Shown piece by piece: positions 52,738-57,947 of a stretch of DNA of 64,000 nt. The position numbers and the translations under genes are program-made. The DNA is from Syntrophales bacterium (lineage in GTDB: Bacteria; Desulfobacterota; Syntrophia; Syntrophales; UBA2210). Location: positions 2,240,001-2,304,000 of the forward strand of contig CAXXKT010000001.1 of the NCBI GenBank assembly GCA_963662405.2. The letters are read 5' to 3'. The notes beneath the pieces were generated by a model. The model ran no database searches. It was given only the letters and a program-made list of their open reading frames with translations, and was not told the origin of the DNA. Position 1 is the stretch's first letter. The number at the start of each line of letters is the position of its first letter.

Positions 52738-53985
52738 ATGGCATCAAGTGGGAAAGGGCCTTTAGCGGGTCTTAAGGTGGTTGATTTATCTGAATTTGTG
52801 GCGGTTCCCGTAGCGGCAAAGCTGTTTGCGGATTGGGGAGCGGAAGTCGTAAAGGTGGAAAAATTCGGAGGTGATGACTGGCGTTCGTATGGTCCGTTCT
52901 TTAATACCCCCTATGAGGACGATGAGAATCCGCTCTTTGACATGGAACATTTGAATAAAAAATTTCTTGCCCTGAATCTGAAGACGGATAAAGGCCGGGA
53001 GGTTATACACCGTCTCTTGTCCGAAGCAGACATATTTATGACGAACTACCGGGGTGATGCCCTCAAGAGGCTGGGGCTTTCATACGAGGATTTGACCGTG
53101 CTCTACCCGAAACTCATTTTTGCACATTTGACTGGGTTCGGAGAAAAAGGCCCCGATGCCGGAAGACCGGGGTTTGATGTCGTTGCCTATTGGGCTCGCA
53201 GTGGTGCGATGCTCGATCTGGTTCCGGCCGAGGTCGGCGTTCCTATCAACGCCCCCTTCGGGTTTGGAGATCATATCACAGGTTCGGCCCTTGCCGGGGG
53301 AGTCTTGGCCGCGTTATACAAACGGGAAAAAACCGGCCGCGGCGATAAGATAATTATGTCATTATTTGGTCACGCTATTTTTTGTGCCGGATGTATGATC
53401 ATGTCTGCCCAGGACAGGTATGGAGATCCTTTGCCGCGATACAGGGAGAGACCCGGTAGTCCTGTCGGACATACCTATCAGTGTAAAGATGGGAGGTGGA
53501 TACTCCTCTCCATCCTTGTGTACGATCGTTATTGGCCGATACTTTGTAAGGAGGTTCTTAACCGGCCCGATCTTCTTCAGGATGAACGTTTTCACACAAG
53601 GCCTACTCCTAAAGGGTATAGCGCCGAGTTGTACAAAATCTTACATGACGAATTTAAGAAAAAAGACTCCAATGAATGGTCTTCTCTACTCCGAGCGGCA
53701 GATATCGCCTTTGAGAATGTCGCACACTTCAGTGAGGTCACAAAAGACGAACAGGCGTGGGCCAATGGGTATATTTTTGAACATACCTTTAAGAACGGGA
53801 ATAAGGCGATATTGCCCAAGACATCCATTCAGTTCGGGAGTTACAACGTTCCTAACCCCCTTCCCCGGGCGGGGACGCGTGTGGGCGAACATTCGGCGGA
53901 TGTGCTTCTGAAGATGGGGTATACAGATTCCGAAATCGAGGATCTTGAAAAGGAGGGCATCATCAAAAAGCCTTCTTCACAATAA
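52738..53985 (+). CDS. Family III CoA-transferase (FldA/HadA/BaiF-like)
   Basis: PLAGLKVVDLS, PGFDVVAYWARSG, FGDHITG. Confidence 0.9.
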   Translation: MASSGKGPLAGLKVVDLSEFVAVPVAAKLFADWGAEVVKVEKFGGDDWRSYGPFFNTPYEDDENPLFDMEHLNKKFLALNLKTDKGREVIHRLLSEADIFMTNYRGDALKRLGLSYEDLTVLYPKLIFAHLTGFGEKGPDAGRPGFDVVAYWARSGAMLDLVPAEVGVPINAPFGFGDHITGSALAGGVLAALYKREKTGRGDKIIMSLFGHAIFCAGCMIMSAQDRYGDPLPRYRERPGSPVGHTYQCKDGRWILLSILVYDRYWPILCKEVLNRPDLLQDERFHTRPTPKGYSAELYKILHDEFKKKDSNEWSSLLRAADIAFENVAHFSEVTKDEQAWANGYIFEHTFKNGNKAILPKTSIQFGSYNVPNPLPRAGTRVGEHSADVLLKMGYTDSEIEDLEKEGIIKKPSSQ

Positions 53986-54062
53986 GATTCGATCACTTGA
54001 AATGAATATAATGTATGTGCGGGAGAAGGCGCAGGGAGGATTGACAAGAGGCAGAATCTTTA

Positions 54063-54173
54063 TGAAATACCCCGTCCTGTGGACGGGGATGAATGCGGAG
54101 CAGGGGCAGGGGGGATGCAATCCCCCTCATTTAAGCTTTTCAGATGCCCCGCCCTGTGGGCGGGGTAATTCTC
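54063..54173 (+). mobile_element. Miniature IS200/IS605-like element (paired end hairpins)
   Basis: GAAATACCCCGTCC-tgt-GGACGGGGATGAAT and GATGCCCCGCCC-tgt-GGGCGGGGTAATTCTC; preceded by TTTAT. Confidence 0.6.
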
Positions 54174-56054
54174 GTGTGCCCGGCATGGGCAGCAGCTTGG
54201 AGGTGAGAGTCCTCTACAGGTCCTGATGGTGGAAACTGTTAGCCGAGGGCAAGGGCGTCCATCGCGAGGTGGGGTCTGAAGGAAGCCGGAGGCAAAATCC
54301 CGATCCGAGGAACACGAATCGCATATCAGGCTGTATCATTGGGGCGAGCTTACGTGAGAAGGCGAAGCCCGTAGCCATCAAACGGTGATGCAGTAAATGC
54401 GGCGGATGCGGGGTGAAGGCGGCTGTTCTTACCCGGGGAGGTCTGGGAACCTGTCGGAGACGACAAGGGGTTTCGCAAGGGACTCTGAACGGTTTCCAGA
54501 AGTCAGCAGAGGCCGTATTAGGTGTGGCGCAAGCCGGGCTGAAGGGCCGAACGTGTGGTCGGTGGTGAGACTCAAGGATTCGTGGTCGTGGAGATGCGGC
54601 AACTTTCATTATTCGATGAAGGCCTTCTGTCATGTTTGAAGGGTGAAGCCCCGAGGAGAGATGGGAGGAGGTATCAAGCGGCGGCGGCATTGGAGAGATC
54701 CGAACCCATCATGGTTGACCTGATGCAGGAGGTAGTGAACAGGGAGAACGTGATTCGCGCATGGAAACGAGTCAGGGCGAACAAGGGGAGCCCCGGCATT
54801 GACGGGATGACCGTCGATGAACTGACGGATTACCTGCGGGAACACTGGCCGCGGATTCGGGAGGAGTTGTTGACAGGGGAGTATCGCCCCCAACTGGTGA
54901 AAGAAGTAGTGATTCCGAAGCCGGGAGGCGGGACCAGACGGCTTGGTATCCCCACGGTGACGGATCGATTTATCCAGCAGGCAATTTTGCAGGTGCTCGA
55001 TCCCCTGTATGATCCGACCTTTTCGGACTACAGTTATGGCTTTCGTCCTCGTCGCCGTGCTCATCAGGCGGTGAACCGAGCGAAGAGATGCATATCTGAA
55101 GGATACGAATGGGTGGTCGATATTGACCTGGAGAAGTTTTTTGACCGGGTGAACCATGACATCCTCATGGGGAGACTGGCCAAGAGGATCGGTGACAAGC
55201 GCATTCTCCGGGTTATTCGTCGGTATGTGCAGGCCGGGATCATGGTCAATGGGGCCGTACAGGAAAGGTGGGAAGGGACGCCGCAGGGCGGACCCTTATC
55301 GCCGCTGCTGGGCAACATTCTTCTGGACGCACTGGACAAGGAGTTGGAACGGAGGGGTCACCGATTCTGCCGGTATGCGGACGATGTGAACATCTATGTC
55401 AAGTCTCAGCGCGCCGGGAAGAGGGTGTTTGAATCCATTGAGGCATTTTTGCTCAAGCGGTTGAAGCTTCGGGTGAACCGGGACAAGAGTGCGGTAGCCC
55501 GATACCATGAGCGGGGATTCTTAGGATTCGGCTTTACCTCCGGGAAACTCCTCAAGATCAAGCTGACGGGCAAGGCCCTGAGGAACTTCCGGGACCGAGT
55601 CCGGGCGATCACGAGGCGATCTCGGCGCGTCTCCATCAACCGGATAATCGAGGAACTCCAGACGTATTTGAGAGGATGGATCGGGTATTTTCATCTGATC
55701 GAGACGTGGACGATTCTGCGGGATCTGGATAGTTGGATGCGCAGGAGGTTGCGGTGTTTCATGGTCAAACAATGGGTAAACAACTGCCATACCCGTTATA
55801 AGAACCTGATCCATCTGGGAGTAGGGAAAGATCAGGCGCGTATCGCGGCAGGGTCAAGCAAAGGACCTTGGGCGTTGTCCAACATGAAACCGCTGAAGAT
55901 TGCTTTGTCCAATCGGTTTTTTGCCGAACGGGGTTTTCTTGGACTCTGGGGTCAGGCTCAAACATTGGGCAAGACTACATGAACCGCCGTGTACGGACCC
56001 GTATGCCCGGTGGTGTGGGAGGGCGAAGGCCGTGAGGCCTTCCCCTATCCCGAT
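54174..56054 (+). mobile_element. Group IIC intron, complete
   Basis: 5' GTGTGCCCGGCATGGG; IIC domain I motifs (GGTGAGAGTCC, CTGAAGGAAGC, GAGGAACACGAA, CTTACCCGGGGAGG); domains V/VI GAACCGCCGTGTACGGACCCGTATGCCCGGTGGTGTGGGAGG...CCTATCCCGAT. Confidence 0.93.
54555..55982 (+). CDS. ltrA: Group II intron reverse transcriptase/maturase without endonuclease domain; true start may be ATG 54594 or 54711
   Basis: NKGSPGIDG, RRLGIPTVTDR, SYGFRP, DLEKFFD, GTPQGGPLSP, RYADD, LRGWIGYF. Confidence 0.95.
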   Translation: MVGGETQGFVVVEMRQLSLFDEGLLSCLKGEAPRRDGRRYQAAAALERSEPIMVDLMQEVVNRENVIRAWKRVRANKGSPGIDGMTVDELTDYLREHWPRIREELLTGEYRPQLVKEVVIPKPGGGTRRLGIPTVTDRFIQQAILQVLDPLYDPTFSDYSYGFRPRRRAHQAVNRAKRCISEGYEWVVDIDLEKFFDRVNHDILMGRLAKRIGDKRILRVIRRYVQAGIMVNGAVQERWEGTPQGGPLSPLLGNILLDALDKELERRGHRFCRYADDVNIYVKSQRAGKRVFESIEAFLLKRLKLRVNRDKSAVARYHERGFLGFGFTSGKLLKIKLTGKALRNFRDRVRAITRRSRRVSINRIIEELQTYLRGWIGYFHLIETWTILRDLDSWMRRRLRCFMVKQWVNNCHTRYKNLIHLGVGKDQARIAAGSSKGPWALSNMKPLKIALSNRFFAERGFLGLWGQAQTLGKTT

Positions 56055-56192
56055 TCAGCCGCATGAAACTTCAGCCCTTTGTCCAGAGATGTGGCGAGTG
56101 TTGGAGAGGACTCAAGCGGGTTTAATGCTCTGAAGAAAAATAGCAAGTCCTGCGATGATTTGATTTCGGAAAGAGAAAATGAGGAGGAAGAG

Positions 56193-57242
56193 ATGAAGCG
56201 GAAAACATGGGGCAGAATAGCTTACTGTATTGTGATGTTGTCACTTATTAGTTTTACCTTACCATGTCAGCGGGTACATGCGGATGAGCAAGGAAGAATT
56301 AAAGCACTTGAAGCGAAGATCGCAGCTCTTGAAGAAGGGAGTATCCGTGTAATACACCCAGCTCCATGGGTGAAAGTTGCGGATGATCCTAAACTTGTAA
56401 TTGAGGGTCCGGCATTTGATCGAGAGGGTAATCTTTATGTATCAGGGGTTGGAACTGGAGAGATATTCAAGATTACACCAAATAAAAAAGTTACAAGCTT
56501 CTTTAAACATCCTGCTATAAATCATATGTCTTCTATCGATATCCATAAAGATGGAAGACTCTTTTGTTGTACTTATACATTAGGGACTATAATTGTTGTT
56601 ACCCGTGATGGAAGTAGTTACGAGGTAATAGTTGATAAAGCTAATGTTGAGGGAATGAAAACCCCCGATGATATAGTGTTTGATTCTAAAGGGAATTTCT
56701 ACTTTACTGATCTTTTTGCCAGTAAAGTTTGGTATGTCACGTCAGATTTTAAAACTGTAACCGAACTCAAACCGAGAGGGACTTTCCCCATGTACCCTAA
56801 TGGAATTAGTTTGGTTGAGAGCCCAATTTCCGGGAAAGAAAAACGCTTATTGATAGCCGAGTATAAGGATGGATTTTTATGGCGTTTTGATATCGACGCA
56901 GCAACACCGTGGAAAGCCGCTCCTATGACATTGGGGTCAAATTTCTACCCTGTGAATTTTGTTGCGCCTATGTCTGACTCAAATGCAGTAGATGCAGACG
57001 GTAATGTGTATCAATGTGTCAATGGTAGGGGTATTATTATCCTGGAAGCAAATACGTATAGACGTGTAGCAGAGGTGCGGTTTCCGGTAGTGGATTCCGG
57101 GGAACAAATGGGTGTGACTAACATGACCATTAAACCTGGTACCAATGAAGCGTACGCGGTGGTGAGTCATGGCCCACACGGTGCTGAAGTCTACAAGTTT
57201 ACTGCACTTGGCAAAGCTCCGGCTTATTTTTCACATCAATAG
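56193..57242 (+). CDS. Secreted SMP-30/gluconolactonase (Drp35-like) beta-propeller lactonase
   Basis: Signal peptide; EGPAFDREGNLY, PDDIVFD, PNGI, SDSNAVDADGNVY; AT-rich. Confidence 0.85.
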   Translation: MKRKTWGRIAYCIVMLSLISFTLPCQRVHADEQGRIKALEAKIAALEEGSIRVIHPAPWVKVADDPKLVIEGPAFDREGNLYVSGVGTGEIFKITPNKKVTSFFKHPAINHMSSIDIHKDGRLFCCTYTLGTIIVVTRDGSSYEVIVDKANVEGMKTPDDIVFDSKGNFYFTDLFASKVWYVTSDFKTVTELKPRGTFPMYPNGISLVESPISGKEKRLLIAEYKDGFLWRFDIDAATPWKAAPMTLGSNFYPVNFVAPMSDSNAVDADGNVYQCVNGRGIIILEANTYRRVAEVRFPVVDSGEQMGVTNMTIKPGTNEAYAVVSHGPHGAEVYKFTALGKAPAYFSHQ

Positions 57243-57482: not shown

Positions 57483-57947
57483 TCAGATTTTGTAAGTTAT
57501 CAGACTGTATATGGCAACGTCAAAAACATAGTATTGGGTTTTGAAATGTTGGCCAGTAAAATTTTTCGCTATATGAATCGAGCTTTTACCCTTGATGAAA
57601 TCGATCACCTGCGCCACAGAATATTTCGGCGGTATGGAGATCAACATAGGGACATGATCAGATCTGAGATGCCCCTCCAAGACGTTACTTTCCCTCTGCA
57701 TCGCGAGGTCTTTGAATGTTGACCCGAGATACTGACGTAATTGCTCATATATCGCTCTCCTCCGGTATTTCGGTCTCCATACCACATGATACTTGCATTC
57801 CCATACACTATGGCTTAAAATCGCGCTGTCTTTCAATTGAAACCTCCTCCCCTGTAAACTTCGAACGGTTCACGGTGAGGAGGTTTTCTTTATATTCCCG
57901 GAGATGTCAAACTCAGGGAGTCCCCCGGCAAAGCCGGGGGTTTACCT
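57483..57947 (-). pseudogene. tnpA: IS200-family element relic: truncated tnpA (57836-57483) with left-end hairpins
   Basis: LSHSVWECKYHVVW.PKYRR; HUH motif degraded to DHVP; IPPKYSV...IKGKS; C-terminus lost; hairpin CCCCCGGC-aaa-GCCGGGGG at 57922-57940. Confidence 0.85.

Follow-up and report, generated by a model that had tools for sequence, protein, structure and literature searches.

A group IIC intron at the right-end terminus of a miniature IS200-type element, and its likely homing to IS200 ends

A group IIC intron lies directly behind a miniature IS200-type element

The window analysed here is a stretch of 64,000 nt from a Syntrophales bacterium (assembly GCA_963662405.2, contig CAXXKT010000001.1, positions 2,240,001 to 2,304,000 of the forward strand), in which positions are counted from its first letter. 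Downstream of a CoA-transferase gene that ends at 53985, it holds a group IIC (class C) intron placed behind a miniature insertion sequence (IS) of the IS200 type. The intron is intact and stands at the exact right-end terminus of this element, a place that it likely reached by retrohoming to IS200 right ends. The features of the locus are listed below.

54059..54063, + strand: TTTAT target motif, host DNA outside the element; TTTAY lies to the left of every family copy, and in empty sites TTTTAT is joined to the right flank
54064..54173, + strand: miniature transposase-less IS200-type element, 110 nt, delimited by its copies and by end alignment with a full IS200
54070..54088, + strand: left-end hairpin CCCCGTCC-tgt-GGACGGGG, then ATGAATGC, from folding; the same motifs occur at full IS200 left ends
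54110..54126, + strand: internal hairpin GGGGGAT-gca-ATCCCCC, common to the left region of full-length IS200
54147..54165, + strand: right-end hairpin CCCCGCCC-tgt-GGGCGGGG, from folding and alignment with the full IS200
54170..54173, + strand: putative intron-binding site 1 (IBS1), the last four IS bases, TCTC here and TCAC in the family; pairing with exon-binding site 1 (EBS1) is backed by covariation
54174..56054, + strand: group IIC intron, 1881 nt, from four copies with exactly the same limits and Rfam matches
54258..54547, + strand: ribozyme domains I-IV core (RF02001 at 54258-54427, RF01998 at 54464-54547)
54354..54357, + strand: putative EBS1, GUGA, from covariation across 90 relatives
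54711..55982, + strand: intron-encoded reverse transcriptase (RT)/maturase with no endonuclease domain, from Pfam and a match to a relative of solved structure
55982..56054, + strand: domains V and VI and the intron 3' end, ...GAU (RF00029; fold z = -3.9)
56055..56055, + strand: putative IBS3, the T that opens the 3' exon, found in 4/4 genomic copies

The intron begins with GTGTG at 54174 and ends with ...CCCGAT at 56054, followed by TCAGCC. Its 1881 nt were found four times in the genome, 99.9-100% identical over exactly nucleotides 1-1881 and surrounded by unrelated flanks. An Rfam scan recognised domains I-IV well over the cut-off (144.8 bits for RF02001 and 46.6 bits for RF01998), whilst domains V-VI matched RF00029 with 38 bits (cut-off 40; E 2.3e-05) over model positions 1-77, the match ending on base 56054. 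The limits of the intron are therefore fixed by the points at which the similarity between the four copies stops, by the Rfam domain matches and by the end of the RF00029 match. An open frame runs from 54555, with a likely ATG at 54711. Pfam analysis of the encoded RT revealed RVT_1 and GIIM domains and nothing else; its best solved relative is the GsI-IIC RT (6ar1, E 3.7e-140), matched over its full length with an alignment start near the ATG at 54711. The foot of a GC hairpin of 8 bp lies 8 nt ahead of the insertion site, as is found with class C introns. An intrinsic terminator with a T-run is the usual target of this class and stands outside its structural definition; here the exon tail is TAATTCTC and the hairpin is an IS end. 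Collectively, these data identify 54174-56054 as an intact class C intron with confirmed boundaries. A first-pass annotation, made from the sequence alone, had assigned the intron to group IIC, and the Rfam, Pfam and GsI-IIC RT matches agree; its sequence statements (GTGTG at 54174 after a hairpin, a sister hairpin upstream, TTTAT ahead of the pair) all hold. The four near-identical copies imply that the intron has been recently active.

The 5' exon is a transposase-less IS200 derivative

Immediately ahead of the intron, the right-end hairpin (54147-54165) is followed by TAATTCTC at 54166-54173 and then by the intron GTGTG. The left and right hairpins are 77 nt apart, start to start, and TTTAT lies 6 nt ahead of the left one. 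Folding of 54060-54180 as single-stranded DNA returned three hairpins, with a z of -3.6 compared with shuffled sequences; the middle one, at 54110-54126, is unrelated to the end hairpins. Coordinates beginning with C1 or C2 refer to contigs of this genome (G000), which is 100% complete and in which a profile search gave 13 Y1_Tnp matches. A full IS200 at C1:266180-266800 encodes a TnpA of 146 aa (132.7 bits to PF01797), with the motifs CAGAATA-hairpin-ATGAATGC at its left end and GATG-hairpin-AGCTTCAC at its right end. The mini element aligned with both ends of this IS200, the transposase region being missing. The full element is apparently intact, its TnpA showing HVH and a C-terminal Tyr by eye; the third intron copy lies 3 kb away.

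The mini element is present in several copies. A stretch of 106 nt is identical ahead of intron copy 4, decayed intron-free copies exist at C1:903780-903886 and C2:356800-356873, and nine intron-free copies were detected across three genomes from this genus or family (G004, G005 and G015). A TTAY-like motif precedes all nine, eight of which end in TCAC followed by T. When the mini copies were aligned, similarity started right after the TTAY-like motif and stopped at TCAC. The left end of the window copy is about 11 nt shorter than that of the other family members, and this copy may for that reason no longer be mobile.

Filled and empty sites define the element to the base. The filled locus L109 (genome G005) was compared with its empty orthologues in G007 and G001. 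The empty site reads TTTTAT|T(C)GTATTT... and the filled site TTTTAT[GAAAATACC...TAATTCAC]TAGTATTT..., the element in brackets lying between TTTTAT and the flank with no duplication and with the C of TCAC as its last base. The spacing to the next conserved block is 27 nt in filled and empty sites alike, and a second filled/empty pair is concordant except for a 1-nt indel. For the window locus no empty version was found, as its flanks (53300-54065 and 56055-56900) had no match in 30 related genomes; in a further comparison, at L107, the left flank only was matched.

Insertion at a specific motif and the lack of duplication and of inverted repeats, together with subterminal hairpins, are hallmarks of the IS200/IS605 family, and the limits set by the filled and empty sites place the intron between the last IS base and the host flank. 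The mini element has no terminal inverted repeats, carries subterminal hairpins at both ends and has ends homologous to those of an element with a Y1 (HUH) TnpA; its multicopy presence and one site polymorphic across species are signs of mobility. We conclude that 54064-54173 is a transposase-less IS200 derivative and that the intron stands exactly at its right-end terminus. The suggestion that the hairpin pair marks the left and right ends of an IS, with the intron inserted precisely at the right one, is thus upheld by the alignment with the full IS200 and by the filled and empty sites. Intron-free copies and a tnpA, which the first-pass annotation had proposed to look for along with a tnpB, are both present in the genome; tnpB is not.

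Two other matches near the element were set aside. The Y1_Tnp remnant at 57519-57809 on the minus strand, 1.5 kb downstream of the intron (82.6 bits to PF01797, frame of about 117-128 aa), was rejected as the cognate transposase because it is truncated and belongs to a different subfamily. Rfam also gave a weak anti-hemB match to the mini element's minus strand (21.7 bits for a cut-off of 49.5, E 0.04), which was taken as chance.

Covariation points to an EBS1 complementary to the IS terminus

The tetranucleotide GUGA at 54354-54357 lies in the loop ACGUGAGA of a GCUU/AAGC helix. The register of its pairing with the exon was tested on 90 non-redundant relatives, using 5' junctions located by nhmmer and 2000 shuffles. 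Pairing of loop positions 3-6 with the last four exon bases (-4 to -1) was seen in 296 of the 360 cells, compared with a mean of 176 and a maximum of 205 in the shuffles. The alternative register GAGA (54356-54359), which would pair perfectly with UCUC here, was rejected: it scored 194/360 cells, which is chance level, and was fully paired in 4 of the 90 relatives. Because covariation favours the first register over both the shuffles and the shifted register, GUGA is identified as the EBS1, complementary to the terminal TCAC of the IS family. This is the EBS1 that had been proposed by eye, with the TCTC of the window one mismatch away from TCAC. The first-pass annotation also held that many IS605/IS1341 ends finish in TCAC, a statement on which the present data bear for this one family. 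On the 3' side, the first exon base is T in 24 of the 27 loci of a provisional clade list, made of the loci at 62% RT identity or above plus L022.

Close relatives of the intron share IS200-type sites

Related loci were collected from genomes (79) and metagenomes (80), giving 159 in all and 110 usable 5' junctions. An RT tree was built from 95 sequences after removing loci whose RT match fell below 380 aa or was interrupted by a stop, and those in which the 5' junction was missing (L131, L134, L135, L138 and L142 are among those left out). The window RT and the relatives at IS200-type sites fell in one clade of 20 with a support of 1.0. The sites of this clade comprise 7 with tnpA, 3 with a mini element, 9 with a right-end-like hairpin only and 1 other, so that the same arrangement recurs in a monophyletic RT clade drawn from several phyla.

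The best-surviving alternative is that this is an ordinary terminator-homing IIC intron, IS200 hairpins merely resembling terminators and the landing being incidental, with no specialised lineage; we regard it as improbable. In its favour, distant relatives with 45-58% RT identity mostly follow a hairpin and a T-run terminator, with an EBS1 that covaries with the T-run to match it. An in-clade member, L133, lies after rplQ, and a relative on an E. coli plasmid is found after a T-run terminator, beside an IS3-type fragment. Against it, T-run sites account for none of the 20 sequences in the clade as opposed to 33 of the 75 outside. The exon ends in T[C/T/G]A[C/T] at 21 of 23 junctions with at least 62% RT identity, compared with 5/83 of the rest. 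A hairpin is present in 21/23 of these clade exons, and its foot is spaced 8-9 nt from the site in 18/23, where the mode outside is 5-6 nt; the conserved end and this spacing match the geometry of IS ends. Of the 19 loci with 500 nt or more of upstream sequence, 8 (Pfam; L017, L019, L117, L122, L125, L131, L135 and L137) have a same-strand Y1_Tnp gene immediately ahead, its end 35-140 nt from the intron, compared with 3/58 loci outside the group (tblastn), and all four intron copies of the genome adjoin IS200-type ends. The first-pass annotation had stated that homologues lying mostly after Rho-independent terminators would speak against its proposal of a lineage at IS200 right ends. Such a pattern is absent from the clade and resembles what is seen in the distant IIC relatives, at their T-run terminators; the clade of 20, the exon ends and the upstream tnpA genes support that proposal. 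Collectively, the data indicate that this intron lineage likely uses transposon ends, and not gene terminators, as landing sites.

The transposases found next to the introns are not all alike. Those of L019 and L135 are 75% identical to this genome's, and others belong to a different IS200 subfamily; with at least two TnpA subfamilies represented, the association does not trace to one inherited insertion. L120 has a partial tnpA at a contig end. In L142, L159 and L127, a second hairpin of the left-end type was found, and these elements look like miniature derivatives. The three outside loci with a tnpA are alike in their 5'-exon sequence and probably represent one element sampled three times. 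In L038:1391-1975 (also L170 and L179), likewise outside the clade, a hairpin and TTGTGATTT precede an Anaerolineaceae IIC intron, and an IS200 tnpA lies about 210 nt upstream of it. This type of site may be an independent case of the IS200-end habit.

Other arrangements were seen among the relatives. L121:540-570 and L138:1975-2005 have no hairpin, and the L121 exon ends in ...CTTTTAT, the IS target motif. In some distant IIC loci (L026:3765-3835; L079, L083 and L089:3810-3880), the intron starts directly after domain VI of another copy, and these head-to-tail tandems suggest that domain VI can be used as a target hairpin. A sequence search also returned 1148 chromosomal matches in E. coli genomes. 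One of them, L206:2791-2945 (NZ_CP043033.1), is a degenerate IIC intron that adjoins a truncated InsQ/TnpB pseudogene on the opposite strand, with no hairpin ahead; the other E. coli chromosomal matches sampled cover the same part of the query with similar identity.

All four genomic copies adjoin IS200-type ends

Intron copies 1 and 4 lie behind the mini element. Copies 2 and 3 lie behind hairpins of the CCCCGCGG type, tailed by AGCTTCTC and AGTTTCAC; the genes upstream are a subtilase gene and an RNase D-like gene, and the right ends ahead of these two copies match the right end of the full IS200. The 5' exons of two copies end in TCAC and those of the other two in TCTC, and the 3' exon starts with T in all four. 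TCTC is found at 54170-54173 and at G000:C1:2552830-2552833, both occupied by the intron, and every intron-free family end is TCAC, or in one case CCAC; the A-to-T change at position -2 seems tied to intron occupancy.

These copies bear on a second alternative, in which the IS carries the intron, as cargo or as a fixed component, and TnpA spreads both instead of the intron homing by itself. That copies 1 and 4 share an identical mini element of 106 nt plus the intron would fit, as would contigs from four metagenomic runs, three of them probably of DNA and one of unrecorded type, that cover the mini element and the intron and not the window flanks. The element, however, stops at TCAC, before the intron, and intron-free copies of both the mini element and the full IS200 exist. 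Copies 2 and 3 stand behind a different type of right end, differences between the two mini copies are seen at the left end and at position -2, and past the 3' end of the intron there is no right end made of a hairpin and TCAC. We therefore consider transposition as one unit very unlikely.

The orientation of the copies was compared with GC skew, which on contig 1 changes from negative (0-0.99 Mb) to positive (0.99-2.72 Mb). The sense strand of all four copies is the G-rich strand, and the empty site of the full IS200 has the opposite orientation relative to GC skew. This fits entry on the lagging-strand template, and is only suggestive. Extended perfect palindromes, GTGAAGCT-hairpin-AGCTTCAC, occur at G000:C2:149225-149260 and G000:C1:2490920-2490960. 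They correspond to the IS200 right-end motif joined to its mirror image, so that either strand carries a right-end-like site, and none of them holds an intron.

The least credible alternative had been put forward by the first-pass annotation: an intron at the scaffold/guide junction of a TnpB omega-RNA, splicing of which would restore the guide. Its position at a right end of the IS200/IS605 family is all that speaks for it; no PF07282 or PF01385 match was found by profile search of the genome, the associated elements carry tnpA only, and no OrfB domain was found among 142 open reading frames upstream of 22 related loci. With no tnpB in the genome, splicing would have no guide to restore, and the omega-RNA reading is refuted for this locus, leaving it the faintest of chances.

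Discussion

Our results favour homing of this intron to IS200 right ends, and several observations weigh against it. The window copy ends in TCTC, leaving a U.U mismatch with EBS1 at position -2. Potential targets are vacant: no intron occupies the perfect site of the full IS200 (C1:266768) or either arm of the palindrome at C2:149233. For 9 of the 20 tree-clade sites neither a tnpA nor a left end was found besides the right-end-like hairpin, L133 follows rplQ as an intron at an ordinary terminator would, and L121 and L138 lack a hairpin before the intron. The members of the clade are kin, and the counts overstate their independence. The tree was built from 95 sequences, 159 related loci having been fetched; loci with truncated RTs or missing 5' ends were excluded. 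Finally, the orientation result comes from 4 copies only and is confounded by gene orientation.

Homing to IS200 ends could operate as follows. The intron ribonucleoprotein would recognise single-stranded DNA folded into the right-end hairpin, in the way that IIC introns recognise terminators. EBS1 would read the last four IS bases, 8-9 nt past the foot of the hairpin, and EBS3 the T that follows. The intron would then reverse-splice into the same phosphodiester that TnpA would cut, a cut after the last IS base being presumably the TnpA cleavage position in this family, by analogy with IS608. Entry would use the exposed template of the lagging strand, the one that IS200/IS605 elements use as well. 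Each new copy of an IS200 or of a mini element would offer a fresh landing site, and the intron transcript could be supplied by read-through from the upstream gene or from tnpA.

A bolder proposal, which we hold as tentative and more doubtful than homing itself, is that the lineage is a dedicated hyperparasite of IS200. Its EBS1 would read the TnpA cleavage tetranucleotide, on the same phosphodiester, strand and fork, and the spread of IS200 would create its homes. The intron, or the TCAC-to-TCTC change, would alter excision by TnpA, and members without a hairpin, such as L121 with its ...TTTTAT| exon, would be scars of TnpA excision. That the L121 exon is the scar of a TnpA that excised the IS and left the intron behind is speculation.

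If homing to IS200 ends is correct, the IS200 right-end hairpin with its terminal tetranucleotide would be a third class of IIC target, beside terminators and integron attC sites. It would link two mobile systems that both act on hairpin-folded single-stranded DNA at the replication fork, and would provide a natural case of one selfish element specialising on another. IS200 ends ahead of such introns are easily mis-annotated as terminators, and introns at the right end may change IS200 mobility. The rules described here (a hairpin, a spacing of 8-9 nt and T[C/T/G]A[C/T]|T) could give hairpin-guided IIC targeting more room for design.

Comparison with known systems

In a full-text literature search, no account of IS200 ends as homing targets of IIC introns was found; a mention in earlier key papers on IIC introns is possible. 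The mini element is a PATE/MITE-like IS200/IS605 derivative. As in other miniature derivatives of this family, both end hairpins are kept, insertion occurs after TTTAY without duplication and several copies are found in related genomes; it differs only by the intron at its tip and by the deletion of about 11 nt at the left end of the window copy.

GsI-IIC and B.h.I1, which we take to be terminator-homing class C introns, provide the closest comparison for the intron itself. It shares with them an endonuclease-less RT, closest to that of GsI-IIC, a IIC-type ribozyme and, probably, short EBS1/IBS1 and EBS3/IBS3 pairings, as well as an intergenic insertion in the sense direction, a few nucleotides past a DNA stem-loop. 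Unlike in terminator-homing introns, the hairpin here is an IS200 right end without a T-run, it lies 8-9 nt from the site where about 5-6 nt is usual, and IBS1 corresponds to the terminal tetranucleotide of a transposon. Class C introns are described as landing after transcription terminators (PMC7306698, PMC3522654).

Group II introns have been linked to IS elements and to other repeats before. In Thermosynechococcus elongatus, according to the passages cited, IIB introns occupy a conserved site in the IS200-family element ISEL1, and the authors noted that insertion elements give new unoccupied sites (PMC2882425). Both cases involve group II introns found repeatedly on an IS200-family element; those of T. 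elongatus are described as IIB1 (CL) introns with EBS1/2/3 recognition and a site 'in' the IS, which the passages do not place at an end hairpin or a cleavage site. In Pseudomonas putida, 2 of 9 intron copies are described at repetitive extragenic palindromic (REP) sequences in the part of the paper cited (PMC1525189).

IStrons are described as fusions between a group I intron and an element of the IS200/IS605 family (PMC4227781, PMC10690162). They resemble the present locus in that a self-splicing intron is physically coupled to a transposon of this family. As described there, an IStron contains a group I intron and forms one chimeric element moved by the transposase, whereas the intron reported here is a group II intron with its own RT, lies outside the IS boundary and coexists with intron-free IS copies; it is thus not an IStron.

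The nearest parallel in habit is provided by the IIC-attC introns such as S.ma.I2, which the cited passages describe at integron attC sites (PMC7923331). On that description, both would be IIC sub-lineages that gave up terminators for a site at which another mobile system recombines folded single-stranded DNA. The attC site is the substrate of an integrase, whereas the site here is the end of an element mobilised by TnpA, a HUH Y1 transposase.

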